From: Minisyncoccota bacterium
Lineage (GTDB): Bacteria; Patescibacteriota; Minisyncoccia; SW-4-49-11
NCBI GenBank assembly: GCA_032117235.1
Contig: JAULZW010000001.1
Coordinates: forward strand, 10,762-74,761
Reading direction: 5' to 3'
Length of the DNA: 64,000 nucleotides
Under the pieces are notes generated by a model that was not told the origin of the DNA, searched no databases, and saw only the letters and a list, made by a program, of their open reading frames with translations. The number at the start of each line of letters is the position of its first letter. Position 1 is the stretch's first letter. Shown one piece after another: positions 9,774 to 40,085 of the stretch. The position numbers and the translations under genes are program-made.

Positions 9774-10874
9774 ATGGCAAGGGATTATTATGAAATATTA
9801 GGGGTTTCCAAAGATGCGAGTGAGGCTGAAATCAAAAAAGCTTATCGTAAATTAGCTCATACTCATCATCCTGATAAAAAGGGTGGAGATGAGGCTAAGT
9901 TTAAGGAGGTAAATGAGGCTTATCAGACACTTAGTGATCCTCAAAAGCGTCAACAATATAATCAATTTGGATCCAATTATCAACAAGCTGGAGGGGGGGC
10001 AAGTGGATTCTCTGGTTTTGGTGGTGGCGCTCAGGGATTTTCTTTTGATGATGTTTTTGGGCAAGCAGGATTCTCTTTTGGTGGAGGAGGTTTTGAAGAT
10101 GTGTTCTCAGATGTATTCGGTGGAGGTAGAAGTGGTTCCAGAAGACAGACTAGAGGTAGAGATATTGAACTAGCTGTAGATATTAGTCTAGAAGAGTCCT
10201 ATACTGGTATTTCAAAGTCTATAGATTTAGATATTAATTCAACTTGTGATGCTTGTGATGGGACAGGAGCTCAGAATAAAAAAACCAAACAATGTCCAAC
10301 TTGTCGAGGTAATGGTTATGTGGAGCAACAAGTGAGAACTATGCTTGGTAATTTTAATCAGAGAGCTACTTGTAGTGCTTGTCAGGGCAAGGGTACAATT
10401 CCAGAATCTAATTGTAAAAGCTGTCAAGGAACAGGTGTCAAGAGACAAAAAAAGTCTATAAAAATCGAGATTCCAAAAGGTATTGCTAATGGGCAGACCC
10501 TAGAAATGCGAGGTGAGGGGGAGGCTGCTGCTTATGGTGGTACAAATGGAAATATTTATATTCATATCTCAGTCAAAACTCATAAAAAGTTTGAGAGACG
10601 AGGCGATGATATTTATTTAACTCAAGATATAGTCTATACGACAGCAGTATTAGGAGGTAATCTGGATATAGAGACTTTGGGCGGAGAATTGAATTTAAAA
10701 ATTCCTAAACAAACTCAGTCAGGAGAAATTTTCAGACTTCGTGAGAAAGGAATGCCCCATTTACAAGGTAGAGGCTATGGAGATATGTATGTGACGGTCA
10801 GAATTATTACTCCTAGAAATATTTCTCGACGTGCACAGCAATTATTAAAAGACTTGCAATCTGAAGGAATGTGA
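9774..10874 (+). CDS. dnaJ: Chaperone DnaJ.
   Basis: J-domain YYEILGV...HPDK, Gly/Phe-rich linker, and four CxxCxGxG zinc-finger repeats. Confidence 0.95.
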
Positions 10875-24868: not shown

Positions 24869-26728
24869 TTACCAGCTTCCGCCACCTCCTCCGCCACCGC
24901 CTCCACCAGATGATCCACTGCCAGATGAGCCGCTACTACTATCACTAGTGTTGGGCGATGACATTAGAGAAGATGTTGCGAAGTAACTAAAATTGTTCAT
25001 TGATTGGCTTAGAGTAATTGTGCTAAAAGTTGTTCTAGAGTTTCCTGAATACCAAGTCGGAGGCATTGTATATATTTCTTTAAATTCTTTTGCCCAAATA
25101 TCGGCAACTCCTAAAACCATTGCATAGGGTAAAAGTTTTTCAAAAACCTCCGGCTTTTTTTCTGGGGCATTGTGAAATTTAATACGGTTCTTTTCAGCGA
25201 CCTGTAGATATTCTTTAAGACCAAGAATATACTCTTTTGTTATGGCTCCTTTTTTTGTTTTTGAAGAACTAAAGTTATATATTAGATTATAGATTATAAT
25301 TGAAAAGAATATTCCTACTATCAATGGGAACGGGTTGTCTTTAAAAAGTAAAAATCCTAAAATACCACCAATAAATAAAGAAGCAAATACTGATATCACA
25401 ATCATTGAAAATATATCCAAACCATTTTTTATTTGTCCTAAATTTCTGTAATAACCTTTGTTTAGGAGTGAATCTAGAACTGAAGTCACTATAGTTTCCA
25501 CATTTCGGTAGAATACATCTTTCAAACTAGAAAGTTTTATAGATTGATATTGACTAATAGGATGAGTTTCAACAACAGGGTTACGACCTTGAAATATAGC
25601 CTTTAAGTTAAGGGATGTTGTATTAGGTTGAGTATTAAATAAACTATTCAACAGCTTTTGATCAAAATCGTTTGGAAGAGTAGAGAAATCTTTTAGTCTT
25701 GTAAGTTCGAAGTCAGTGAATTTTATTAATCCAACAAATCGCTCTTCCATTTGGTGAATTTTAAGATATCCTTTAGTTGCAAGATAAATTATCTCAGCAG
25801 AAATATCACTATTATCTAACTTCTCTTTAGCAATAGTACCAACTTCTATAGGTGTGAGATTATCAGGAGCATCATATTGGGGCACTATTATACCTGTACC
25901 ACGCTCATCACGCCCTTTTTTATGCCAATTTAATAAAGAAAATATGAGAGTTAATATTGGCAAGGTTCCAGCAATCAACCAACGCCAATATTTGTCAAAA
26001 AAATTAGACTCTGAATATTGAGACACAACAGTAATATCTTCCTGAAAATTAGACTCTGAATATTGAGACACAACTCCTTTTGGAAAACCTACAGCAACAG
26101 TAATACCTTCCTGTGGATTAAGAACAGCTGTAGTATTGAATGAATAAATGTTTTCATAGTAGGATGTCTGGCATTTGTCTTTACTTCCTTTAAGGCCATA
26201 ATAACATTCTGATTGAATCACATTAACCCCATAAGGTAATCTTACTGAAGCTTTTGCTTGGTATATAGGAAGATTCCATTCATCACCAGTCACATTCCAA
26301 TATATCTCATCTAAGTCTTTAAGCTGAGCAATTGCATTTGTCGCTTTGTATTTTATAATATAAACTTTTTGCCCAAGAAATGCTATATCTGGATTTCCAA
26401 TTTTTATCTTGATACTATCTTTAGAATCAGAAGTTTCAAATTCATAAGGATCACCTTTCTCATCTTTTACGGTAATATTTTCAATAGACATTCTTCTTTC
26501 TTGAGAAGAAATAGTAGCTATATCTCGATAAATACCACGACGTTTCTCAGGACCTGTATTATATGTGATTTGCTCTGTTACATCTATAGAATTATCTATA
26601 TTTACAACAATGTCGGATATATAAGAGATAATAGACTCTTCAGGAACAACATTTTGTGCTACTACACTATTAAAGTTAAGCCCTAAGGTCAAAATATAAG
26701 TTAATAGTAACAAATAAATTTTCCCCAT
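24869..26728 (-). CDS. Secreted or membrane protein (DUF2207-like?) with a C-terminal Ser/Gly-rich tail ending in poly-Gly-SW.
   Basis: 619 aa with an N-terminal signal peptide, two internal transmembrane segments, and a C-terminus ...SSGSSGSGSSGGGGGGGGGGSW. The DUF2207 assignment is from memory of that family's architecture and is uncertain. Confidence 0.5.
   Translation of the reverse strand: MGKIYLLLLTYILTLGLNFNSVVAQNVVPEESIISYISDIVVNIDNSIDVTEQITYNTGPEKRRGIYRDIATISSQERRMSIENITVKDEKGDPYEFETSDSKDSIKIKIGNPDIAFLGQKVYIIKYKATNAIAQLKDLDEIYWNVTGDEWNLPIYQAKASVRLPYGVNVIQSECYYGLKGSKDKCQTSYYENIYSFNTTAVLNPQEGITVAVGFPKGVVSQYSESNFQEDITVVSQYSESNFFDKYWRWLIAGTLPILTLIFSLLNWHKKGRDERGTGIIVPQYDAPDNLTPIEVGTIAKEKLDNSDISAEIIYLATKGYLKIHQMEERFVGLIKFTDFELTRLKDFSTLPNDFDQKLLNSLFNTQPNTTSLNLKAIFQGRNPVVETHPISQYQSIKLSSLKDVFYRNVETIVTSVLDSLLNKGYYRNLGQIKNGLDIFSMIVISVFASLFIGGILGFLLFKDNPFPLIVGIFFSIIIYNLIYNFSSSKTKKGAITKEYILGLKEYLQVAEKNRIKFHNAPEKKPEVFEKLLPYAMVLGVADIWAKEFKEIYTMPPTWYSGNSRTTFSTITLSQSMNNFSYFATSSLMSSPNTSDSSSGSSGSGSSGGGGGGGGGGSW
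26000..26074. repeat. In-frame 45-bp tandem duplication inside the CDS (two exact 30-bp copies).
   Basis: aaaattagactctgaatattgagacacaac occurs at 26000-26029 and again at 26045-26074. It encodes the repeated peptide VVSQYSESNF. Confidence 0.8.
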
Positions 26729-27053: not shown

Positions 27054-27210
27054 TATAAAATATAAAGTTACAATTGTATAATGCACTTTATCAAATATAT
27101 CACAATTTTAATTTTTTGTCTATTGTTTGTAATAGATGAGATGATCGTAGACAAATTGCAAAATAAAAAGTTAAAGGATGGAAGGAACACATAAAGTATT
27201 ATATAATTCA

Positions 27211-27458
27211 CTGTCCTCCTTTGGAGGAGGTGGCACGAAGTGCCGGTGGTGGATAATTAGTAATTTATACGTTAGATTTATGCTTGGATATCTTTTCAAT
27301 CTATACTCTGTCCACCCTCCCCCGTCGCAAATAGAATTTGCTCCTGTGAAACCTCACGGTTTCCCAACCTTCCTCCACGGGAAAACTCCCGTTTTCCAGA
27401 CCCCTTTCCCAAAGGCTAAAGCCTTTTTACGGGTACTCCCTCCAAAGGGAGACAAAAT
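27211..27458 (+). repeat. GC-rich structured repeat element, copy B (about 250 bp).
   Basis: Shares an identical 42-nt 5' module (CCTCCTTTGGAGGAGGTGGCACGAAGTGCCGGTGGTGGATAA) with copy A. A long near-identical core (CCACCCTCC..CGTCGCAAAT...CCTGTGAAACCTCACGGTTTCCCAACCTTCC..CACGGGAAAACT.CCGTTTTCC.GACCCCTTTCCCAAA) and the same 3' terminus (GGGAGACAAAAT) are also present. Confidence 0.6.
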
Positions 27459-27507
27459 AAATTTCAATTTTAAATTTTTGTCTATTGTTTGGGACATAAG
27501 AATCTAT

Positions 27508-28932
27508 CTAATTGTTAGGAGGTGGGGGAGTAGTCTCAGGAGTGGGAGTATCGAGTTTATCTATATACTCTAAATCATCATCTGATATTCCTAGTTGATC
27601 TAATATATAAATATGTCTACTGTTGCTAGGGTCGTATTTCCCAACAGAAAACCTCATCATTTCATCAGGATTATTTTTTATTACATCCCAAACCCCAATA
27701 TTTCCCTCTCTATATATCATATCCTTTGTAAAACAAACACCTGCAGTTTTACAATCAGTTCCTCTAAAAGTTCTAATACATCTATTCCAAGCATTATTTT
27801 TAGAACTAATACTGGCTTCTTCGGGTGATTTTTTTGCTCCAAGAGCTTTAAAATAAAAATATTTTTCTAATACCTCATAAGTTTCTCTAAAATCTCTTTT
27901 TTTACCATCTAACCCCATTGCTAAACTTATAGCTAAATGTCCTTCTAAGCCAGAAAAATCATTTACAGAAGATTTGAGAACTTGTTCTCTCATTGTAGCA
28001 ACCCCTTCCTCTCCTTGTTCATAACGATCTAAACCTAGACTCAATAATCTTAATTGAGTATTTTCACCATTAACTCTTCTAGCAACATGAGTCCCCACTT
28101 CATGTACGAGTAAAGATTGTAGCCTTGTTTTGGATGGAAGCACTCTAGATTCAGGTATAGTAACATTTTTCTGCTCCTGATTTGTACTAATTGATGTACT
28201 ATTATCTACTGTAATTACCTCCCAACCATCTGCATTTGACTCTCTTAATGCTTCTTCAAAAGCATTTCTTATAGAATTAGAATCATACTTACCATCTTCT
28301 AGGGGTATATTTAAAATACTATCAAATTCTTGTTTAGTTTTTACTCTTGCTAATTCTACAGTATCATCGGAAGGAGTAGATATATCTGGATTAGTGGTTT
28401 CAATATCCAATTCACCTAGTGTTTGCATTAATATCTCGGCAGATGCCTTAATGTCTGGATTATCAGAATTTAAAGCCTTACTTATTTTGTTATTTAGATT
28501 ATACATAGTATATTTAAAAACTTCATCTGAGGGTTTTCCATAAATATACTTAGAATATCTTTCAAATCTTCGCATATCTCCATTATGTGAAGATTTCATC
28601 ATTCTTAACTCTGCAATTTTTTCATTAATTTTCCAGCTATATACATTACGAACTATCTCATTAGTCTCCTGCTCTAAAATATCTTGTTTTAACTGCATTA
28701 AGCTAGACTCAATATTGTTAATTGTTTCTATATCTAGCAAAGGATAGTCTAAATCAGGATTTTCTATTTCTCCACTAAGGAAAGCTTCCTTTTGAGTGTT
28801 TCTAGCACCTGCTTCTCCATTGAAGTACTCATAAGCTTGAAAAGATCCAATTTCTTCAAATCTATTATACCAATTATCATCGAGAGATTCAGACTCGAGT
28901 TTTTGTGATGTTTGGTGTTCTAGATTTGTCAT
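27508..28932 (-). CDS. Putative Zn-metallopeptidase of the DUF1704 / QEGLA-motif family (HExxH).
   Basis: 474 aa containing LLVHEVGTHVARRVNGE (HExxH) followed by ...YEQGEEGVATMREQ (QEGLA-like). This family is known to sit beside RimK-like ATP-grasp ligases. Confidence 0.5.
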   Translation of the reverse strand: MTNLEHQTSQKLESESLDDNWYNRFEEIGSFQAYEYFNGEAGARNTQKEAFLSGEIENPDLDYPLLDIETINNIESSLMQLKQDILEQETNEIVRNVYSWKINEKIAELRMMKSSHNGDMRRFERYSKYIYGKPSDEVFKYTMYNLNNKISKALNSDNPDIKASAEILMQTLGELDIETTNPDISTPSDDTVELARVKTKQEFDSILNIPLEDGKYDSNSIRNAFEEALRESNADGWEVITVDNSTSISTNQEQKNVTIPESRVLPSKTRLQSLLVHEVGTHVARRVNGENTQLRLLSLGLDRYEQGEEGVATMREQVLKSSVNDFSGLEGHLAISLAMGLDGKKRDFRETYEVLEKYFYFKALGAKKSPEEASISSKNNAWNRCIRTFRGTDCKTAGVCFTKDMIYREGNIGVWDVIKNNPDEMMRFSVGKYDPSNSRHIYILDQLGISDDDLEYIDKLDTPTPETTPPPPNN

Positions 28933-28939
28933 AATACAT

Positions 28940-29932
28940 TTAATTTATACTATATAATTTCTTCATTCCAGATAATAGTATAAGTGCTAATATATTTCTA
29001 TGCTTGCAGAAGTTTAAATCTTCAAAGGATCCATGTTGGTAAAATCTTGAAGGGATATAGCCATATTGTTTGGAAAAATACTTGGAGACAATGTTTTGAT
29101 ATTTTTCTAAAGTTTCTTTTTTAGAATTCATATTTAACCCCCAACAGACTCCAATTTCTGCAATAATGTCTACCTCATTAGTTGAAAATATTTTTGCTTC
29201 CATATCTTCAAACTCCCCCCAAATCCAATCAAATGTATTGTTAGATATATGGTGATTATAAAATTGACTTTCCCCTATAATTATATGCGTTAGTGTGTAC
29301 AAATAATTAAGAAATACTATAGGATCTTCTATCTCACGATCAGTGTAATTGTCTTTAATTATTTTAAATAGTAATGTTTCATCTTCTTCTCTATAAGGAG
29401 AGTTGGGTAAAAATTTTGTTAGATATAAACTATTTACTATTTGTACAGGTGCAAATAGTACTGACTCTGAGCTATTTTCTATAAAAGATATTATTTTAGG
29501 GTATGTTTCGTGTATATAGTTTTGAGTTTGGGTATATATTGTTGGATTTAAATCTTTAATTAGGTTGATTCTATTTAAATATTCAAAGTCAGTAATAACT
29601 TTTTTAAATAAAATTAAATCATGTATCTTATCATTTTTATTGATATAAACATTTCTCTTTAGTTTTTTTGGTACTTGCTCAGATAGAGGATATAGTTTGG
29701 GGATTTCCTTACTAATGATTGATCTTGAAAAATTATGCTTTATGTAGTAATCTAAATTAGATATATTGGTCTCTACAGCATAATCTTTTAATATCTGTAG
29801 ATATTTATATTCACCATAAATTCTATATAAACGAAATAGAAGAAATATTTTCCCTGAGTTTGGTAACTTAGGAATAAGGGATAATAATGTTTTCTTAATA
29901 GTCTCGGCTTCAGTATGATATGCTTTTTTCAT
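28940..29932 (-). CDS. Hypothetical protein (ORFan) inside the ATP-grasp cluster.
   Basis: 330-aa ORF co-directional and tightly spaced with its neighbours. No recognisable motif. Confidence 0.5.
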   Translation of the reverse strand: MKKAYHTEAETIKKTLLSLIPKLPNSGKIFLLFRLYRIYGEYKYLQILKDYAVETNISNLDYYIKHNFSRSIISKEIPKLYPLSEQVPKKLKRNVYINKNDKIHDLILFKKVITDFEYLNRINLIKDLNPTIYTQTQNYIHETYPKIISFIENSSESVLFAPVQIVNSLYLTKFLPNSPYREEDETLLFKIIKDNYTDREIEDPIVFLNYLYTLTHIIIGESQFYNHHISNNTFDWIWGEFEDMEAKIFSTNEVDIIAEIGVCWGLNMNSKKETLEKYQNIVSKYFSKQYGYIPSRFYQHGSFEDLNFCKHRNILALILLSGMKKLYSIN

Positions 29933-29940
29933 AAAAACTA

Positions 29941-30852
29941 TTATTTGGTACTCATTAAATAATTAACAATATCAAAAGCTGTATCAGAATTGTGTGCTAA
30001 GTCAAAGCCGCTAAAGTGAGGAAATTGATTTACCTCAATAACTAGGGGCTCATTATTTGCAGTAATCAATATATCTACACCAGCATATTCAAGGTCTAAT
30101 TCTCTACATACATTTATAGCTAAATTTTTTATTTCGTCTGAATAGTTATAAGCTTTACCCTTATTCCCCTGAGATATATTTGTTGTTATGGAATCAGAAC
30201 TCTTTATTCTTTGCAAAGCCCCTAATACTTTATCGCCGAGTACTATTATGCGAAGATCAAACTCAATAGGAATATATTGCTGATATATTACTTCTTCAGG
30301 ATTGTATAGATTAAGATATTCTTTTAAATCACTCTCTGATTCCATTAACTCAACACCTTTACCAAGAGATCCACTTTTAGGCTTTATTATAAATCTATTA
30401 TCATTTAATTTACTACATATATTTTCATATGATTGATATCCTCTAGAAAAAAGAGTTTTAATAATAGGAATATTGGGGTTCTTAGATAAATATGTATACT
30501 GTATTAATTTATCATAAGAAGGATATTTTAGTAGATGTGTCCTATTTAGCTGACGAGTATTATCTGAAACATATTTATCCCAATATAAGGGAGGGATACT
30601 ATATAGATTTCTATTTATAACAATATCATATGGTTTATTTAATAGGTTAGAGTCGGGGAGTGATAACAACTCTGATTTAGTTGATATAACATCTGCCTTT
30701 ATTGAAAATTTTTGGAATGCATTTAATAATTTTCTAATTGAATTATTGTTTTCTGAAAGTGTTGTAATGAGTGCATTCATATTGTGAGACTTATATAGTA
30801 GATAGACAAGAATGTGTTTATTCATTATAATAAATACATTATAACATATCAA
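29941..30852 (-). CDS. RimK-like ATP-grasp amidoligase (alpha-L-glutamate-ligase family).
   Basis: IIKPKSGSLGKGVELMES...FDLRIIVLGDKVLGALQRIK...TTNISQGNKGKAYNYSDEIKNLAINVCRELDLEYAGVDILITANNEPLVIEVNQFP matches the RimK ATP-grasp motifs. Confidence 0.75.
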   Translation of the reverse strand: MICYNVFIIMNKHILVYLLYKSHNMNALITTLSENNNSIRKLLNAFQKFSIKADVISTKSELLSLPDSNLLNKPYDIVINRNLYSIPPLYWDKYVSDNTRQLNRTHLLKYPSYDKLIQYTYLSKNPNIPIIKTLFSRGYQSYENICSKLNDNRFIIKPKSGSLGKGVELMESESDLKEYLNLYNPEEVIYQQYIPIEFDLRIIVLGDKVLGALQRIKSSDSITTNISQGNKGKAYNYSDEIKNLAINVCRELDLEYAGVDILITANNEPLVIEVNQFPHFSGFDLAHNSDTAFDIVNYLMSTK

Positions 30853-30860
30853 GTCGCTCT

Positions 30861-31835
30861 ATGGAATTAAGTATTTTTCTCAGACCAATTATTGAAGAAG
30901 CAGAAAGTAGAAATATACATTGTTATGTTTTTTCAGATGTTAGTAAAAATTATGCGGTTTTAAGATATAATGATCATGAGGAGTTTATCAACAATACATT
31001 GATAGATAATATAGGTGCAGCTACTAATTCAATGTTAAAAAATAAATACCTCCAATCAGTGTTACTGAGTCAAAAAGGATATAGTACCCCTAAGACTCAA
31101 ACAGTGTATTTAGAGAAGTCCAAGAGAGATGAATTTATCCAACAATTTAATCAATTTCCCTGTGTGGTCAAGCCATTAGATAATTATGGAGGGAAGGGAA
31201 TTACTGTAAATATTACAAACCATAGTGATTTAGAACAGGCAATAGAGTTGGCTTGTGGTATGAGCAATAGATCTAGATATAAAGATAGATGTATAGTACA
31301 GGAAATGCTTCAAGGAGAAGAGTATAGAATTTTAGTAATTGGCAATAAAGATGTATTCTTAGTCAAGAGAACCCCTTTTCAAGTTATAGGAGATGGTAAA
31401 CACTCAATACAAGAGTTGATTCAAATTTATAATGAAAATACAATTAATAGTATAAGGAAGGTAGAAATAGGCTCTAGTATAAAGCATATATTACAAGAAA
31501 AATCTCTAGCATTAGATTATATACCTCAAGATAAAGAAATTATCAAGTTAAGTTATAAAGCCAATTCTCATGATGGGGGATCTTCTCAGGAACTGACTGA
31601 TTTTTTACCAGAAGGACTGAAGCAATTTGCAATTAGACTATCCTTAGATTTTAAATTACCAGTTGTAGGAATTGATATTATAACTTCTAATCTTGTCAAT
31701 CTAAATCCATACATTCTGGAGCTCAATATAAATCCAGGGTTAACAATACATAATAACCCAACATTTGGAGTACCAACTAAGCCTCAAAAAGCTATTATTG
31801 ATCTTTTATTCCCAGAGACAAAAAAATTTAAATAA
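30861..31835 (+). CDS. ATP-grasp domain ligase, cyanophycin-synthetase-N-domain/RimK-like. Paralog 1.
   Basis: CVVKPLDNYGGKGITVNI...EYRILVIGNKDVFLVKRTPFQVIGDGKHSIQELI...ANSHDGGSSQELT...VVGIDIITSN...LELNINPGL. Confidence 0.7.
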   Translation: MELSIFLRPIIEEAESRNIHCYVFSDVSKNYAVLRYNDHEEFINNTLIDNIGAATNSMLKNKYLQSVLLSQKGYSTPKTQTVYLEKSKRDEFIQQFNQFPCVVKPLDNYGGKGITVNITNHSDLEQAIELACGMSNRSRYKDRCIVQEMLQGEEYRILVIGNKDVFLVKRTPFQVIGDGKHSIQELIQIYNENTINSIRKVEIGSSIKHILQEKSLALDYIPQDKEIIKLSYKANSHDGGSSQELTDFLPEGLKQFAIRLSLDFKLPVVGIDIITSNLVNLNPYILELNINPGLTIHNNPTFGVPTKPQKAIIDLLFPETKKFK

Positions 31836-31847
31836 TTATACCGCTAT

Positions 31848-32822
31848 ATGAAATTGAGTATCTTTCTCAGACCAATTATTGAAGAAGCAGAAAGTAGGGG
31901 TATAGATGTATCTTTTTTTTCTGAATTTCGTACAAGGTTTACAATATTATCATATGAGGGACATACAGAGTTTATAAGAAATACATTAACAAATCATGTA
32001 GGTTCGGTTACTAGTTTAATGTTAAAAAATAAATACTTTCAATCAGTTTTATTGAGTCAAAAAGGATATAATACTCCCAAGACTCAAATAGTGTATGTAG
32101 AGAAGTCTAAGAAAGATAAATTTATCCAAAATTTTAATCAATTTCCCTGTGTGGTTAAGCCTTTAGATAACTATGGTGGAAAAGGTATTACTGTAAATGT
32201 TACAAATTATACTGATTTAGAAAAAGCAATTGAACTTGCTTGTGGTATGAGTATTAAATATAAAGATAAATGTATAGTACAGGAAATGGTTTATGGATCT
32301 GAAGAATATCGAGTGTTGGTAATTGGGAATAAAGATGTGTTTTTAGTTAAAAGGACTCCATTTAGAGTTATTGGAGATGGAAAACATTCAATTCAAGAAT
32401 TGATTAAAATATATAATGATAATGTGGTTAAAGTAGACAAAACAAGATATGTTCAGATAGGAGAAAGTATAATGAATATCTTACAAGAAAAGTCTCTAAA
32501 ATTAGATTATATCCCTAAAGATAAAGAAATTATAAAACTAAGCTATAAAGCTAATTCACATGATGGTGGGTCATCAGAGGAGATGACTAAATTTTTGCCA
32601 GATACATTAAAACAATTTGCTATTAAATTATCTCTAGATTTTAAGTTGCCAATTGTGGGCATTGATATTATAACTTCGGATATAAACAATCCTAACCAAT
32701 GTGTTTTAGAGTTAAATCTTACTCCAGGATTGAATATACATGTAGCTCCGACATTTGGAACACCAACTAAGCCTCAAAAGGCTATTATAGATCTTCTATT
32801 TCCAGAAACCAAATCGATATAG
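31848..32822 (+). CDS. ATP-grasp domain ligase, paralog 2. A tandem duplicate of 30861..31835.
   Basis: Same length (324 aa) and about three-quarters identical to paralog 1. The first dozen residues are nearly identical and there is a long identical DNA stretch at the 5' end. Confidence 0.7.
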   Translation: MKLSIFLRPIIEEAESRGIDVSFFSEFRTRFTILSYEGHTEFIRNTLTNHVGSVTSLMLKNKYFQSVLLSQKGYNTPKTQIVYVEKSKKDKFIQNFNQFPCVVKPLDNYGGKGITVNVTNYTDLEKAIELACGMSIKYKDKCIVQEMVYGSEEYRVLVIGNKDVFLVKRTPFRVIGDGKHSIQELIKIYNDNVVKVDKTRYVQIGESIMNILQEKSLKLDYIPKDKEIIKLSYKANSHDGGSSEEMTKFLPDTLKQFAIKLSLDFKLPIVGIDIITSDINNPNQCVLELNLTPGLNIHVAPTFGTPTKPQKAIIDLLFPETKSI

Positions 32823-32824
32823 TA

Positions 32825-34252
32825 TTATTTCCTCGGATCAATAATAAATCTTTTTAAATCCTGTTTCCCTAATAAAAAAAGGTATTTTAAATGAGATCGA
32901 TTTACTATTGAACATGCAATTTCACTCATCTCATCTCCAATTTTTACTGGGATTTTTATAAAGGGTCTAACTGTATATCCGTTTCCAGCCTTTATAATAG
33001 CAACTTTTTTGAGGAGATGCGGAGTATCTTGTGCCTTTAAGTTAATATTTATTGTATCAGTTAATTTATTTAGAGCATTATATTCTATATCCTCCGGTAT
33101 ATTCAAAGCTTTAAATTCTTTTAATACTTCTCCGTAGCCAAGTTTAATGAGAAGAGCTTCGTCTATACTGGAGGAGTCTGCCCCCGTATCCACCTTGGCT
33201 TCTATAGTTTGTTTTTGATTGTCTTTGCCAAATAAGGTGATTTCCTCAATCAAACCTATAACTTGTCGCCCAGTAATTTCCTCGATTTCTTCTTCAATTT
33301 CTCCTCCAAATAAATCTTTTGCGAGTCGAATAGCTCTTTTTACCGTTTTTACTTTAAGTCCTTTTACTTTTTGTAATCTTTCTTTGAGTGGGGCGAGATT
33401 GGCAATTTGAATAGCAAGTCCTGGTCGGGCATTAGCTTCCAAGACTACTGGTCCAGCATCGCGGTCTAGGGCGATATCTACTCCTGTAAAGCCTAGATTT
33501 GTCACATCAGCAGTGCGAATGGCTATTTCTAAAATTGTATTCCAATATGGTATTCTAATTCCAGCTAAATTGATTTTGGTTCCTGGTATGGTGTCTATGA
33601 ACTTCTCTCGCATAATGGCATTAGTGGTTACTCCAGTGGCCATATCTATTCCCACTCCAATTCCTCCTTGATGTAGATTAGCCTTTCCATCTGATTCTTT
33701 GGTCGGAATTCTAATCATTGCCATTACGGGAATACGATTGAATACAATGACACGAATATCAGGTATACCTTTATAGGCTAAATGCTTGAAAGATTTATTG
33801 AGTTTAATTCGCTCTTCAAAAAAAGCTATATCAGGGCTATTAGTACGTGAATAGGTTCCATCAAGAATATTGCTAATATGATTATGTATCATTGTCTCAC
33901 TAAGTTTAACTCCTTTGGTTTTGACCCATTGTCTTTCTCCGTCGGTAGTTTTCTTTTTATGTTCTCCAAAAATTACCACAATTCCTTCTCCTCCAAATCC
34001 AGAAGTAGGCTTCAATACAAAGCTTTTTGGTAATTTATTATAATCAAAATTATTTAATTTCTCATAAGACCTTACCGAAGCGATTAGTTTTGGGGTCGGT
34101 ATATTATTTTGCTGTAAAACTTTCTTAAATTTGATTTTATTATCTACTAATTTGACCCATTTACGATAGTTATAAGGCTTGATAAAGATAAGGTTACGGG
34201 CATTCATCCCGAGTATTTTTTGACTAAATACGAATGCTTCTAGCCAATTCAT
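32825..34252 (-). CDS. Fusion protein: N-terminal ATP-grasp ligase (alpha-L-glutamate-ligase-related, sugar-transfer-associated type) plus a C-terminal retropepsin-like aspartic protease domain (RimB / putative ATP-dependent zinc protease family).
   Basis: The N-terminal part has ...FVLKPTSGFGGEGIVVI..., ...ANLHQGGIGVGIDMATG... and ...GVDIALDRDAGPVVLEANARPG. The C-terminal part has ...KVDTGADSSSIDEALL... and ...LLGKQDLKRFIIDP, the D-T-G-A signature. Confidence 0.7.
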   Translation of the reverse strand: MNWLEAFVFSQKILGMNARNLIFIKPYNYRKWVKLVDNKIKFKKVLQQNNIPTPKLIASVRSYEKLNNFDYNKLPKSFVLKPTSGFGGEGIVVIFGEHKKKTTDGERQWVKTKGVKLSETMIHNHISNILDGTYSRTNSPDIAFFEERIKLNKSFKHLAYKGIPDIRVIVFNRIPVMAMIRIPTKESDGKANLHQGGIGVGIDMATGVTTNAIMREKFIDTIPGTKINLAGIRIPYWNTILEIAIRTADVTNLGFTGVDIALDRDAGPVVLEANARPGLAIQIANLAPLKERLQKVKGLKVKTVKRAIRLAKDLFGGEIEEEIEEITGRQVIGLIEEITLFGKDNQKQTIEAKVDTGADSSSIDEALLIKLGYGEVLKEFKALNIPEDIEYNALNKLTDTININLKAQDTPHLLKKVAIIKAGNGYTVRPFIKIPVKIGDEMSEIACSIVNRSHLKYLFLLGKQDLKRFIIDPRK

Positions 34253-34255
34253 AGT

Positions 34256-34975
34256 TTATTGATTGCTAATGATTTTACGGAATCGGATATATTCAGAGAT
34301 GCGGAGTCCTTCATAGCGCCCAATTAATATAATTCCCGCAAATACAATCAAAATTACCCATGGATTATAGAAAACTAAATCTCGTAGCCGAGTAGTGGTC
34401 ATAATTAAGTTTCCAATTGAAGCTAGAATCAGGGTTTCTAAGGATAGGATGACAGCGGTACGATAACCTTTTTCCATTTGAGCATTGATGAACTTCTCTA
34501 CCAAGGTAATAATAATCAAAATCTGGTAAATTGAGGCTTGTACAAACATTGTGCTGTCTGAAAATATACCCCAAACCAAACTCAAAAACATAGATAAAGC
34601 TGTAATTGATAGTATTAAAGCCATTTTCGGTAAATATAAAATACGAACTTTGCGAAGTAGAAATCTGACTACTGAAGCCACTAGAAGTGAAACTACAAAG
34701 ACGCTAACTCCATATTTGAAGCCAATTTCAGTCAAAGCAAATGTTATAATTAGTGGTGTATAAATACCAAAAGCTTTAATTCCCACAATTTGTCGGGCGG
34801 CTACGATAAATCCTGCCATAATCGGGAACATTAATAGAATGTCTATTGTTTCACGTGGCACATCATTTCTTAGAAGGTAATCAAAGAATATATCCATATA
34901 CTTATTAAAACTAATTGAGATTATTGTATTATTTTGATATAGTATAACATAACAATATATTTTGACTAGTGGCAA
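34256..34975 (-). CDS. Seven-transmembrane membrane protein of the kind associated with RimK-like ATP-grasp systems (7TM_transglut-like). The true start is probably the internal Met at about 34897.
   Basis: 239 aa with about seven hydrophobic helices. The listed start overlaps the divergent sufB start. Confidence 0.5.
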   Translation of the reverse strand: MPLVKIYCYVILYQNNTIISISFNKYMDIFFDYLLRNDVPRETIDILLMFPIMAGFIVAARQIVGIKAFGIYTPLIITFALTEIGFKYGVSVFVVSLLVASVVRFLLRKVRILYLPKMALILSITALSMFLSLVWGIFSDSTMFVQASIYQILIIITLVEKFINAQMEKGYRTAVILSLETLILASIGNLIMTTTRLRDLVFYNPWVILIVFAGIILIGRYEGLRISEYIRFRKIISNQ

Positions 34976-37094: not shown

Positions 37095-38459
37095 GTGTTT
37101 GAAGGTGAAAATATAAATAAAGGCAATGAGTTAGCTCATGAAATAGAAGAAAGTTCGACAAAAGATATTAGAAGATTTACTCGTTCTTATTCTTCGGTTG
37201 AGAGAACAGCTAAAGCTCAAGAATTAAGAGGTATCCCAAAAGATCAAAGAGAAGAAGAACTTGAAAGTTTTTATAAAGAACAAGAAGCAATAAGGGTAGA
37301 ATTCTTAGAAACTTTAGACGAGAGACAGGTTGAAGATATCATGAATCAGTACGATGTAATTTTTACTCATGGAATACCCTTAGACTCAATGAAAAACACA
37401 TCACATAATAATACCGTAATTGATACAGAGAGTATAAAACTAGAAACAAAAATAAAATTAATTTTAGGTTTTCAGCCAACAATTTCTGCTTGTGTTATAA
37501 AAGTTTCTGAACAAAGTCCAAATGCTCATTATTATAAATTTGGTTTAATGATTGGTAGAGGAACAGTTATGTTGGCTCATAATCGAGATACTGCAACTGT
37601 TGCTGAAAATATGTATTCTAGAAGATTAAAAGATGGTGAGTATAATAAAGATGGAGAAAAAAATTCATATATAAATGGTAAAAATTATAGTTTTTTTCCT
37701 GAAAATATGGTAAATCATAGTATACAAACCAATATACAAGAAAATATAAGACAAGCTATCGAGGAACCAGTTGGTGGTAAGTCTGGAGATGCTAGAAATG
37801 AAGTGGTAATTGAGAATCCAGATGCTATTGGTTTTTACATAGATCTTAACACTGAAATAGGTGATGTAGAATTAATTCAAATTGTAAAAATTGCTAGGAA
37901 TGTTGGGTTGCCAATTTTTGGCTTAAAAAATGGACGAATTTTTTCTTTACAAGACAATGGTCAGGAAGAAATTAATCTTGATGAATTGCATATATCTGAA
38001 GAGTTAACAGAACAAAAAAGATTAAAATATATTGAGGATACAATTCAGGACAATGTTTTTGTTGGTGGAAAAATCCCAATAGAGGCAGAAAGGAGAATAA
38101 GTTCATTAAAGTCTAAAGTAAAAGAAATATCGGGAATAAAACAAGAGTCTTTAGTACAACAAGGATCAGAGGAATTATATCCAGATTTTGAGTATTTAGA
38201 TGGTAACTATAATATGTTTTACAATGCAGATTTAATGTTAAAAGGTACTCATCTTAGATATGACTCAATACATAAAAATGGGAATGATATAGTTAGTTTT
38301 TTTACTCAGATGGGTGTAAGAGAATCTGCTATGACAAAAGTAAAAACACTTTTTGAAAACAAAGACCTTTCAGAATGTAGAAAGTTAATAGATAGTTTTT
38401 TAAATAAATTTTATGAAGCAAAAAAATTATTAGCTCAATGGAAGCAATCTAAAGATTAA
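37095..38459 (+). CDS. Hypothetical acidic protein (ORFan), inserted within the suf operon.
   Basis: 454-aa ORF. No recognisable motif. Confidence 0.5.
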   Translation: MFEGENINKGNELAHEIEESSTKDIRRFTRSYSSVERTAKAQELRGIPKDQREEELESFYKEQEAIRVEFLETLDERQVEDIMNQYDVIFTHGIPLDSMKNTSHNNTVIDTESIKLETKIKLILGFQPTISACVIKVSEQSPNAHYYKFGLMIGRGTVMLAHNRDTATVAENMYSRRLKDGEYNKDGEKNSYINGKNYSFFPENMVNHSIQTNIQENIRQAIEEPVGGKSGDARNEVVIENPDAIGFYIDLNTEIGDVELIQIVKIARNVGLPIFGLKNGRIFSLQDNGQEEINLDELHISEELTEQKRLKYIEDTIQDNVFVGGKIPIEAERRISSLKSKVKEISGIKQESLVQQGSEELYPDFEYLDGNYNMFYNADLMLKGTHLRYDSIHKNGNDIVSFFTQMGVRESAMTKVKTLFENKDLSECRKLIDSFLNKFYEAKKLLAQWKQSKD

Positions 38460-38837: not shown

Positions 38838-40085
38838 TTATTTTATAGATATTCCCAAAACTGTTTGGGCTGCAATTTGAAAATGCAATCGATTAAACTT
38901 CTCAGCTTGAGGATCTCCTGATGGATGATATTCTCTAGCTAGAAATCCAACTTTCTCTGGACTAACTGACATCTTGCTATTTCTATAACCTGCAGACGCA
39001 CGAGCCATTTCACTTGCTTGAGTTTTGATCTGTATTTTGTGAATTCTTAAAATTTGTGACAAATCTATATCCTTTTCTTTTAAATCAGCATCAATATCAT
39101 CTAATTTTATATTACGATTCACTCTAATAATATCTCCCAAAATATGGTCTCTAGGGTTTATAAGAGAATTTTCAACCTGTTTCATCATATGATCTAATAA
39201 AGTTACTCTATACTCTTCTATCACTTTATATATTGCTAATTGAATCTCCTGATCAGTAATAGAATCTACTAATTCAGGATTGAGAGTAATTGCTATAGTG
39301 TCAGCTTTGTGCCGGGTATCCCCAATTGAAAATTTAGGTATGTCTATGGTAGCTAGCACTCCTGGAACTTGGGATAATTCTTCAGTGACTATTCTTTCTG
39401 ATTCCGCGCCTTTTAAATCATCTTGAGTAGTTGTTTCTTCCCCTTCAGTTAAAAACCTAGCATTCCCTTGAGTTATTTTACTGGACCTTTCTTTATATCT
39501 AGCAAATTCTGGGTTTTCGGTATCTGGGATTATTAAATCACTAAGATATTCTATTGACATCTCTCTTCCCTCAGCAAATCCAAAGCCATATTTTTTATCA
39601 ATTCCAGTTTCAGCTATTATCTCTAAAATCTTGGTATAGTAAATATCTATAATAGCCTTAATATCTGTTCTGGCAAGACTAGATTCTGATTCATCTAAAG
39701 AATTTAAAAGTGTCTGATATGTACGATATCTTTCTAATAAAAATTCCACAGAATCATCTTCTAATTCTAAACTAGTTTCTAGATGGTAGGAGTTTAATTC
39801 TTTACAGACATCATATAATTTTTTAGATGATTGAATCTCTTCTAATTTTTGTTTCAAGACATGGACTTGTCTTTGAAGTCTGGGATTAGAAGATTGCTTT
39901 TCAGAGGAGGTTATAAGTTGTTGTAATGCCTCAGATTCCTTTTCTTTTTGAAAGGATATATTATCTAAATCTTGTCTTAAATCTCCACCCCTTCCCTCAG
40001 CGGTTGAAGTATATATCTCATCTATAATTTCCGTCAATGAATATTCAGAAAATAGTTTTTCTTGTATGGGTCTTAGGGTTTCCAT
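38838..40085 (-). CDS. Hypothetical acidic, coiled-coil-rich protein (ORFan), inserted within the suf operon.
   Basis: 415-aa ORF. No recognisable motif. Confidence 0.5.
   Translation of the reverse strand: METLRPIQEKLFSEYSLTEIIDEIYTSTAEGRGGDLRQDLDNISFQKEKESEALQQLITSSEKQSSNPRLQRQVHVLKQKLEEIQSSKKLYDVCKELNSYHLETSLELEDDSVEFLLERYRTYQTLLNSLDESESSLARTDIKAIIDIYYTKILEIIAETGIDKKYGFGFAEGREMSIEYLSDLIIPDTENPEFARYKERSSKITQGNARFLTEGEETTTQDDLKGAESERIVTEELSQVPGVLATIDIPKFSIGDTRHKADTIAITLNPELVDSITDQEIQLAIYKVIEEYRVTLLDHMMKQVENSLINPRDHILGDIIRVNRNIKLDDIDADLKEKDIDLSQILRIHKIQIKTQASEMARASAGYRNSKMSVSPEKVGFLAREYHPSGDPQAEKFNRLHFQIAAQTVLGISIK

Follow-up and report, generated by a model that had tools for sequence, protein, structure and literature searches.

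A predicted Patescibacterial variant of the Rlo/Rim peptide-ligase and peptidase system with a fused retropepsin and additional ATP-grasp ligases

A ligase and peptidase locus related to rloABC

The genome of a Minisyncoccota bacterium (assembly GCA_032117235.1) carries seven adjacent genes, at positions 27508 to 34975 of a 64,000-nucleotide stretch of contig JAULZW010000001.1 (contig positions 10,762 to 74,761), hereafter called the window. Judging from sequence comparisons, and with a probability that we set at about 0.55, this locus is an expanded Patescibacterial version, with a fused protease, of the Rlo/Rim ATP-grasp peptide-ligase and peptidase system, which would build and trim acidic peptides. 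Its components belong to known families and its core is a variant of the named rlo system: a RloC-like ligase fused to a retropepsin, accompanied by a seven-transmembrane (7TM) protein. Around this core, the window adds up to three ligases, a MATCAP-like peptidase and a DUF3541 protein, none of which belongs to rloABC. The original prediction had considered the cassette to be without known function, a statement that is out of date since the core corresponds to rloABC, whose genes have genetic roles, and DUF1704 peptidases are now known as MATCAP.

In Pseudomonas aeruginosa, rloABC encodes a secreted retropepsin (RloA), a 7TM protein that bears an inactive transglutaminase domain (RloB) and a cytoplasmic ATP-grasp ligase (RloC), and RloB was described as 96% proteobacterial (Lormand et al., 2025, PMC12239564). 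RloA cleaves runs of at least eight glutamates in vitro and is blocked by bulky residues (PMC12239564). Loss of all three rloA genes is lethal in hypo-osmotic medium and impairs cell shape, biofilms and tolerance to beta-lactams; these defects are suppressed by deletion of rloB or rloC (PMC12239564).

The ligase-retropepsin fusion and its membrane partner

Protein families were assigned by scanning the open reading frames (ORFs) of the window with Pfam and NCBIfam profiles. The largest component of the core had been predicted to be an alpha-L-glutamate-ligase-like protein fused to a retropepsin, and it indeed matched both TIGR02291 and PF05618 and carries the D355-T-G-A motif. Its ligase domain covers the full ATPgrasp_ST profile (PF14397, E-value of 5e-70, 236 bits) and scored 287.3 bits with TIGR02291, just below the equivalog cutoff of 314.2. 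Like RloC, it is thus a cytoplasmic ATP-grasp enzyme of the ATPgrasp_ST/TIGR02291 family. The fold was modeled with confidence by AlphaFold2 (AF2), and residues K81 and E272-x-N274 were invariant in an alignment of 17 homologs. With unfused RloC-type ligases from Legionella and Aeromonas, the domain shares 37-39% identity, and, used as a query, it recovered a canonical rloABC operon on a Legionella plasmid (37.5% identity).

The retropepsin domain matched PF05618 (E-value of 4e-9), RimB and, weakly, the NCBIfam RloA1-3 models, as well as the structures PDB 2pma and 9g58. Residues K353-x-D355-T-G-A, R429 and R452 were invariant in the 17 fusion homologs and align with the K-x-D-T-G-A, R-P and N-R motifs of Legionella RloA. 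Their spacing equals that of K46/D48/R114/R137 of RloA, residues that coordinate polyglutamate and are needed for function (PMC12239564). As in RloA, the domain has therefore retained both its catalytic D-T-G-A and the polyglutamate-binding residues, which carry positive charge. Unlike RloA, which is a separate secreted protein with a signal peptide, it shows no leader peptide by eye and follows the cytoplasmic ligase on the same polypeptide, at the C-terminal end of a conserved Glu-rich linker.

Within and just before this linker, residues L314, F315, G316, G317, E318, E321, E322, E324 and G328 were invariant in the 17 sequences, and the pattern FGGE[IV][EQ]EE was picked by the locus-finding search as the most conserved of the family. 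As residues 316-333 had AF2 confidence scores (pLDDT) below 50, the linker is predicted to be the most conserved peptide of the family and yet flexible. Unfused RloC proteins stop just short of this stretch, indicating that only fused proteins have the acidic linker. It could act as a pseudo-substrate, a self-cleavage site or a primer. Of these, self-cleavage is kept as a speculative option only, because RloA needs at least eight uninterrupted glutamates and is blocked by bulky residues, while the linker reads EIEEEIEE.

The neighboring gene had been predicted to encode a seven-TM protein and does so: it matched 7TM_transglut (PF14402, E-value of 7e-24) and has approximately seven hydrophobic segments. 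The protein also aligned with positions 311-506 of the 508-position RloB model (NF052267), at 71.8 bits against a cutoff of 900. Only the 7TM module of RloB is thus present, without the inactive transglutaminase domain that RloB carries. Residues shared with Legionella RloB include R35, G39, F43-G44, E134 and a C-terminal G-x3-G-L-R-x2-E-x2-R-F motif. The 7TM proteins of all close relatives are 213 amino acids (aa) long, so translation likely starts at M27 (position 34897), giving the same length. The RLAN family, which had also been listed as part of the cassette, is missing from the window, as none of its proteins matched PF14401.

Three other Patescibacterial loci encode longer 7TM proteins of 530-544 aa (L067:8410-10017, L075:8395-9987 and L080:1072-2706; L-numbers designate the loci retrieved from relatives). 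In these long versions, an N-terminal segment resembling a signal peptide (by eye), a PKD domain and approximately 170 further residues replace the transglutaminase domain of RloB, implying an extracellular N-terminus and a swappable outer domain.

Comparison with the Rlo and Rim systems

A RloC-like ligase, a RloB-like 7TM module and a retropepsin of the RimB/RloA type are encoded side by side, as in rloABC. The differences are the fused retropepsin without a signal peptide, the 7TM protein without the periplasmic inactive transglutaminase domain, the gene order (7TM then ligase), the added genes and the host, which is a monoderm-type Patescibacterium.

The Legionella adelaidensis plasmid found with the ligase query (NZ_LR134414.1) encodes a RloA-type retropepsin annotated as 'RimK/LysX family protein' (L091:2981-3439). 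This protein starts with MANNEKIIYGF, with no obvious hydrophobic leader by eye, and some proteobacterial RloA proteins may thus be non-secreted.

The locus also resembles the Rim systems. RimB cleaves polyglutamate and stimulates the synthesis of poly-alpha-glutamate by RimK. Natural hybrids of the two exist, in which RimB is N-terminal and RimK C-terminal (RimBK; Little et al., 2025, PMC11957791). The window likewise pairs a cytoplasmic ATP-grasp enzyme of the alpha-L-glutamate-ligase type with a retropepsin of the polyglutamate-cleaving type, joins ligase and protease naturally into one protein, and contains a RimK-family gene. A classical Rim system, in which RimK acts on ribosomal protein S6, would account for this RimK-family match and its structural relatives, for a cytoplasmic, RimB-like retropepsin with no visible signal peptide, and for a fusion, as RimB-RimK hybrids occur in nature. 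We nevertheless find this explanation improbable. The RimK-like protein scored 51.4 bits with the S6-glutamate ligase equivalog (NF007764), far below the cutoff of 331, and is not assigned to that equivalog. Moreover, the retropepsin is C-terminal and attached to an ATPgrasp_ST/RloC-type ligase rather than to RimK, and the 7TM partner, which is conserved, plays no part in S6 modification and has no counterpart in Rim systems. Because the domains of RimBK are in reverse order and its ligase is a true RimK, the fusion described here is not a RimBK protein and arose independently of it.

Distribution and the conserved unit

The fusion protein has more than 7,600 homologs at an E-value ≤ 1e-10, and its full-length relatives at approximately 50% identity are named, for example, Moranbacteria and Parcubacteria. 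Among GTDB contigs, with one genome per species, 542 stretches encode a fusion relative. We kept 80 of these loci, most of which have Patescibacteria-type titles (Moranbacteria, Paceibacteria, Dojkabacteria/WS6, Kerfeldbacteria, Saccharibacteria), and counted neighbors in the 56 with sufficient flanks, using the window proteins as single-sequence queries against the neighborhood ORFs. The titles 'uncultured Bdellovibrionales', 'Micavibrio', 'Gammaproteobacteria' and 'Fimivivens' borne by many metagenome-assembled genomes in L011-L090 are likely taxonomic mislabels.

The 7TM gene was directly upstream of the fusion gene and on the same strand in 48 of the 56 loci. At least one additional ATP-grasp gene was found within 5 kb of the fusion in 32 of them, a lower bound given the use of single-sequence searches. 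A MATCAP-like gene lay within 6 kb in eight loci, and a stand-alone DUF3541 gene near the fusion in none. The invariant Patescibacterial core is hence the 7TM gene followed by the ligase-retropepsin fusion, usually with one or more further ligases. The conservation of a cassette with extra ligases therefore holds for this core and not for the seven genes as a unit: MATCAP and DUF3541 are optional add-ons, and the window is the richest version among the loci examined.

In the lineage of the window, the cluster occupies a chromosomal slot between SufBD and RNase H whose gene sets vary. L001, L003 and L004 have the 7TM gene, the fusion, one G-like ligase (that is, similar to the G domain of CphA), RimK and a DUF2207-like gene. 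L005 has the first four of these genes and a 164-aa MATCAP remnant, whose nucleotide sequence is 88.6% identical to that of the window. L008-L011 contain the 7TM gene, the fusion, and RimK and DUF3541 in either order. Two loci have closer fusions. The first, L093 (fusion 96% identical), holds one G-like gene, a RimK-like gene and a partial ORF unrelated to DUF3541 at the contig end, with no MATCAP or DUF3541 before that end. The second, L094 (fusion 92% identical), holds one G-like and two RimK-like genes, with neither MATCAP nor DUF3541.

This variability among close relatives raises the possibility that the genes are fortuitous neighbors, brought together in a hotspot of gene turnover that lies between SufBD and RNase H, and that the accessory genes are independent of the core. 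The segment from 24.7 to 30.8 kb, which is flanked by tRNA genes and has no nucleotide match in relatives except for the MATCAP remnant, is in line with such a hotspot. We consider this very improbable, as the variable genes come repeatedly from the ATP-grasp, MATCAP and DUF3541 families, independent domain fusions join accessory families to ligases (see below), and the intergenic gaps are just 2-12 bp.

A search of the accessible literature found no description of the architecture combining a fused cytoplasmic protease, a transglutaminase-less 7TM protein and an acidic linker, nor of the modular addition of ligases or of MATCAP-ligase and DUF3541-ligase fusions, some of which a 2009 comparative-genomics paper may anticipate. 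A search for Patescibacteria together with these ligases returned nothing relevant.

Gene layout and additional ligases

The seven genes, whose coordinates and strands were reproduced by a mechanical ORF list, are held in three tightly packed transcription units (Table 1). RimK, DUF3541 and MATCAP are arranged head to tail with gaps of 7-8 bp. The true genes probably start inside these mechanical ORFs, being shorter; for the RimK-like gene, the start codon is uncertain and possibly at 30825 or 30780. Of the three best promoter-like matches (11 of 12), two lie back to back between the divergent units, at 30803-30831 (+) and 30852-30824 (-), and the third is upstream of the 7TM gene at 35030-35002 (-). 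A scan for promoters and terminators gave no more sites in total than shuffled sequences, so the divergent control region is suggestive at most.

Table 1. Features of the locus, with positions in the window.
Feature	Position	Strand	Basis
Predicted MATCAP/DUF1704-family metallocarboxypeptidase homolog	27508-28932	-	PF08014, HExxxH + EEG
DUF3541 protein, predicted cytoplasmic (alpha/alpha)6 toroid and RimK-like ligase partner	28940-29932	-	PF12060
RimK-family ATP-grasp ligase, not S6-ligase equivalog	29941-30852	-	PF08443, TIGR00768, PDB 7qys
Candidate short divergent control region	30781-30860		Between RimK-DUF3541-MATCAP unit (-) and tandem G-like unit (+)
CphA G-domain-like stand-alone ATP-grasp ligase, paralog 1	30861-31835	+	TIGR02068, PDB 7lgm
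CphA G-domain-like stand-alone ATP-grasp ligase, paralog 2	31848-32822	+	TIGR02068
Ligase-retropepsin fusion, whole gene	32825-34252	-	ATPgrasp_ST/TIGR02291 + PF05618
Retropepsin domain (RimB/RloA-like aspartic endopeptidase), residues ~330-475	32825-33265	-	PF05618, PDB 2pma/9g58
Glu-rich interdomain linker, residues 316-329, GGEIEEEIEEITGR	33266-33307	-	17-sequence alignment, low pLDDT
RloC-like ATP-grasp ligase domain (ATPgrasp_ST), residues ~1-315	33308-34252	-	PF14397, TIGR02291
7TM membrane protein similar to RloB C-terminal module	34256-34975 (probable 34256-34897)	-	PF14402, NF052267

The four ATP-grasp amide ligases (one RloC-like, one RimK-like and two CphA-G-domain-like) all matched Pfam or NCBIfam models, in agreement with the number originally predicted. 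Sequence inspection and alignment invariants indicate that the ATP-grasp lysine and the E-x-N metal site are intact in each, and all four ligases are apparently active. They are not housekeeping genes, since models for D-Ala-D-Ala ligase and biotin carboxylase reached only 15-35 bits, far under cutoff.

The RimK-like assignment of the first additional ligase stands. It matched PF08443 (E-value of 1.5e-28), the RimK structure PDB 7qys (E-value of 1e-15) and TIGR00768 (135.8 bits against a cutoff of 143.4). Every syntenic relative carries this gene.

The other two are tandem 324-aa paralogs that are 74% identical to each other. They had been taken for ligases with a CphA N-domain; they are tandem ATP-grasp paralogs indeed, but they align with a different part of cyanophycin synthetase, at positions 164-476 of CphA for paralog 1 (TIGR02068, 177 bits; 182 bits for paralog 2, cutoff of 850 for both). 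We take residues ~164-476 of CphA to be its G (ATP-grasp) domain. The N and M (Mur-ligase-like) domains were not detected in either paralog by NCBIfam and PDB profile searches, and the paralogs are thus not cyanophycin synthetases. As with CphA1 and CphA2, the alignments run along the whole G domain (E-values of 1e-30 to 1e-32), including CphA1 PDB 7lgm for paralog 1 (1e-31), whose sequence shows VVKP, GGKG and ELN motifs and also matched the C-terminal domain of GshAB and N-acetylglutaminylglutamine synthetase. Using blastn, both paralogs mapped onto the single G-like gene of relatives, indicating a duplication specific to the lineage of the window. Since paralog 2 lies within a long collinear block, it is, on this alignment evidence, the counterpart of that single gene. 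Approximately 36 homologs of paralog 2 share at least 70% identity with it, and the next drop to 31%. An exact-sequence lookup of the window's own paralog (P0121) returned no record.

The resemblance of these paralogs to CphA G domains, GshAB and the synthetase of an osmolyte brings up another explanation, in which the CphA-G-like and RimK-like ligases would make a di- or oligopeptide osmolyte, or a cyanophycin-like or polyglutamate reserve of scavenged amino acids, that the peptidases remobilize. Circumstantial links to osmolarity, from the rlo phenotype and from Photobacterium (see below), fit this scenario, which overlaps with the main explanation. We regard it as a doubtful one, since the G-like genes are optional in the family, the invariant 7TM partner is left unexplained and the cyanophycin N and M domains are absent. 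For the last reason, synthesis of a beta-Asp-Arg polymer is not expected from the paralogs.

MATCAP-like and DUF3541 proteins and their fusions to ligases

The peptidase had been described as a DUF1704/QEGLA-type protein with an HExxH motif. Its DUF1704 membership was borne out (PF08014, E-value of 2.4e-27, 96.3 bits against a cutoff of 27), but its metal motif HEVGTH is of the HExxxH type and is followed by EEG. It scored 81.3 bits with the QEGLA equivalog (TIGR02421), well below the cutoff of 338.65, and is not assigned to it. Residues H277, E278, H282, E309 and G310 were invariant in eight MATCAP homologs from the candidate phyla radiation (CPR). The human MATCAP structure 7z5g aligned across the metal motif, with the catalytic core alone aligning (sequence E-value of 0.002). 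TMCP1/MATCAP also has HExxxH and EEG; it takes the C-terminal tyrosine, as well as additional residues, off the acidic tails of tubulin and, as a deglutamylase, makes polyglutamate chains shorter. The window shares the PF08014 peptidase family with the eukaryotic MATCAP/TMCP and TTL/TTLL enzymes and would share a common logic with them, in which ATP-grasp ligases add C-terminal residues or Glu tails and a metallocarboxypeptidase removes them, although the system here is bacterial and has no tubulin. At low salt, Photobacterium raises the expression of its QEGLA gene (bacterial MATCAP type), of an ATP-grasp gene next to it annotated 'GshB' and of rimK by 27- to 52-fold. This induction, in a distant organism, is a circumstantial echo of the hypo-osmotic phenotype of rlo mutants.

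The gene at 28940-29932, originally called an ORFan, encodes a full-length member of the DUF3541 family (PF12060, 81.4 bits with a cutoff of 28.2), matching positions 4-303 of the 330-position profile. It is a small family: a set of 1.84 billion proteins contained 364 cluster representatives. The EHRN motif is kept, and the invariant polar residues of the family (R34, Y36, R121, Q164, N167, H216, E253, D255, E259, C263 and H311-R312-N313) suggest an active or binding site. All non-CPR members inspected have N-termini resembling signal peptides, many other members carry an N-terminal extension of 25-50 residues, and CPR versions have no leader. The DUF3541 proteins of close relatives are 32-35% identical to that of the window beside fusion proteins that are 65-82% identical, indicating that DUF3541 is evolving fast or is exchanged between genomes.

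Three types of rare fusion in other genomes tie MATCAP and DUF3541 functionally to ligases. First, L069 encodes a 993-aa protein in which an ATPgrasp_ST, a retropepsin and a MATCAP domain each score above their Pfam cutoff. Second, L007, L015 and L024 encode proteins of approximately 595 aa with RimK at the N-terminus and a DUF3541-like domain at the C-terminus. The latter domain is sub-threshold in Pfam; it was recovered by profile hmmsearch (E-values of 2e-9 to 4e-4) and aligned by hhalign with the DUF3541 alignment (96% probability, E-value of 2e-9), the match spanning the TH..IG.S.FY, E..VC and EHRN.L motifs. Third, the 803-aa protein P0313, the one such protein in a full HMMER search, has the reverse order, DUF3541 then ATP-grasp. 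Taken as domain associations, these fusions show that MATCAP-like peptidases and DUF3541 proteins work with ligases of the RimK/RloC type.

DUF3541 also figures in an explanation based on the envelope. In this view, amino acids would be attached by the ligases, at the membrane, to a carboxylate on a precursor of peptidoglycan or of a glycan, the 7TM protein would handle a lipid-linked or exported intermediate and DUF3541 would be a glycan-binding or glycan-processing (alpha/alpha)6 enzyme. Its fold is carbohydrate-enzyme-like, most non-CPR members have signal peptides, and two are fused to a domain of the beta-lactamase/penicillin-binding protein (PBP) type. In addition, Pfam names the ligase family 'sugar-transfer associated', some 7TM proteins have extracellular PKD domains, rlo mutants show cell-shape and beta-lactam phenotypes, and the distant locus L006 has a family 4 glycosyltransferase, a GNAT protein and a class A PBP directly downstream. 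However, glycosyltransferase neighbors are not general among the 56 loci, and a retropepsin with polyglutamate-binding residues together with a MATCAP-like enzyme points to a peptide chain rather than to the addition of single amino acids. Decoration of an envelope polymer thus appears unlikely.

Proposed mechanism

If the locus is an Rlo/Rim-type ligase and peptidase system, the RloC-like ligase would bind the 7TM protein from the cytoplasmic side, with the conserved C-terminal GLRxxExxRF tail of the 7TM protein as a possible docking site, and would use ATP to make alpha-linked acidic chains, most likely glutamyl, either as free oligopeptides or as a tail on a carrier. The tethered retropepsin would cut these chains internally and, like RimB with RimK, may also stimulate ligase turnover. 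Extending or diversifying the C-terminus would be the task of the RimK-like ligase, partnered by DUF3541, and of the two CphA-G-like ligases, while the MATCAP-like enzyme would trim residues from that end. Finally, the 7TM protein would export the product to the envelope or make its synthesis respond to a signal, either osmotic or from the envelope. By analogy with rlo, the system probably serves envelope or osmotic homeostasis, and this is the weakest step.

An acidic substrate is favored because K353, R429 and R452 match the polyglutamate-coordinating residues of RloA, RloA and RimB cleave polyglutamate and MATCAP/TMCP trims acidic tails. The cycles of adding and removing Glu or Asp tails that were originally proposed are consistent with these observations, with the RimB-RimK pair and with the domain fusions, as far as homology and context can indicate.

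Several points weigh against this interpretation. The least certain elements are which amino acid is used, whether it forms a free chain or one attached to a carrier, and what the physiological role is. Amino-acid specificity cannot be read from the sequence, and no RloC-type ligase has a demonstrated product. The NCBIfam scores of the RimK-like, RloC-like, MATCAP-like (QEGLA) and RloB-like proteins are all under the curated cutoffs. No acceptor candidate emerged, as none of the ORFs across the 64 kb of the window ends in an acidic C-terminus or contains six or more consecutive Asp/Glu residues; likewise, an E. coli S6 query had no match in the window or in the retrieved loci. As the retropepsin is cytoplasmic here and RloA is secreted, the Pseudomonas logic, in which an exported product is cleared in the periplasm, may not transfer. 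The DUF3541 fold is compatible with carbohydrate-active enzymes too. Lastly, the accessory genes turn over rapidly, even among relatives whose fusions are 92-96% identical, so the seven genes need not form one pathway.

A more specific and less likely version of the Rlo/Rim-type reading concerns the core together with its interchangeable extra ligases and trimming enzymes. These might form a membrane-coupled, non-ribosomal machine for making acidic peptides (polyglutamate or mixed Glu/Asp), setting their size and delivering them to the cell surface, with the conserved but flexible linker serving as a pseudo-substrate, self-cleavage site or primer to control both protease and ligase.

Other features of the window

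Two other candidates were rejected. For a defence system, PADLOC models gave no match at an E-value ≤ 0.001 for six of the proteins. For a pathway producing peptides that are made by ribosomes and then modified post-translationally (RiPPs), such as graspetides, no precursor-like ORF was seen, matches to graspetide maturases were weak and sub-threshold, and the window has no ORF with an acidic tail or poly-Asp/Glu stretch.

Beside the cluster, a DUF2207 membrane protein is encoded at 24869-26728 (-), with matches to its N- and C-terminal domains and a poly-Gly tail, SSGSSGSGSSGGGGGGGGGGSW. Its domain, tail and adjacency are as first described. DUF2207 neighbors of 606-639 aa also adjoin the cluster in L001, L003, L004 and L094. 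A consistent link was not found: DUF2207 is near the fusion in only one of the 56 species loci, and the protein is therefore probably outside the system.

A GC-rich element of approximately 240 nt occurs twice in the window (27190-27460 and 2614-2890; 82% identity over 241 bp) in a genome of approximately 31% G+C. The two copies adjoin tRNA genes, tRNA-Thr/Tyr and tRNA-Leu, respectively, and consist of two conserved hairpin-rich blocks flanking a variable AT-rich segment. Its 28-nt core was present on seven further metagenome contigs, four of which have a tRNA gene in the retrieved stretch, two of them within approximately 250 nt. The element had no match in Rfam, and consensus folding gave one to three compensatory pairs, leaving structure and transcribed strand unsettled; it could be an undescribed non-coding RNA or a small mobile element.

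Two ORFs had no Pfam or NCBIfam match. One (37095-38459, +, 454 aa) is an insertion with respect to the otherwise collinear L093, L001 and L005. The other (38838-40085, -, 415 aa) lies within the Suf cluster and has counterparts of 415-417 aa between SufD and cysteine desulfurase in L001-L005, L009, L010 and L093.

Implications

Patescibacteria keep few accessory genes; the presence of four ligases and two peptidases therefore suggests that this chemistry matters to their lifestyle. The Patescibacterial form is a stripped-down rlo, without the transglutaminase domain and with the protease fused, that is found in thousands of genomes and shows which parts are essential. In Pseudomonas, rlo affects antibiotic tolerance, biofilm and cell shape, and the Patescibacterial core offers a simpler system for reconstitution. 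The domain fusions give partners to two families that lack an assigned bacterial function, the MATCAP-like peptidases and DUF3541, and add weight to the analogy of bacterial peptide-tail systems with the cycle of tubulin tyrosination and glutamylation in eukaryotes. If the locus does encode a machine that exports acidic peptides, ATP-grasp ligases and a MATCAP-type carboxypeptidase would make up a complete bacterial toolkit for polyglutamylation and deglutamylation, older than the tubulin-code enzymes of eukaryotes and maybe ancestral to them.

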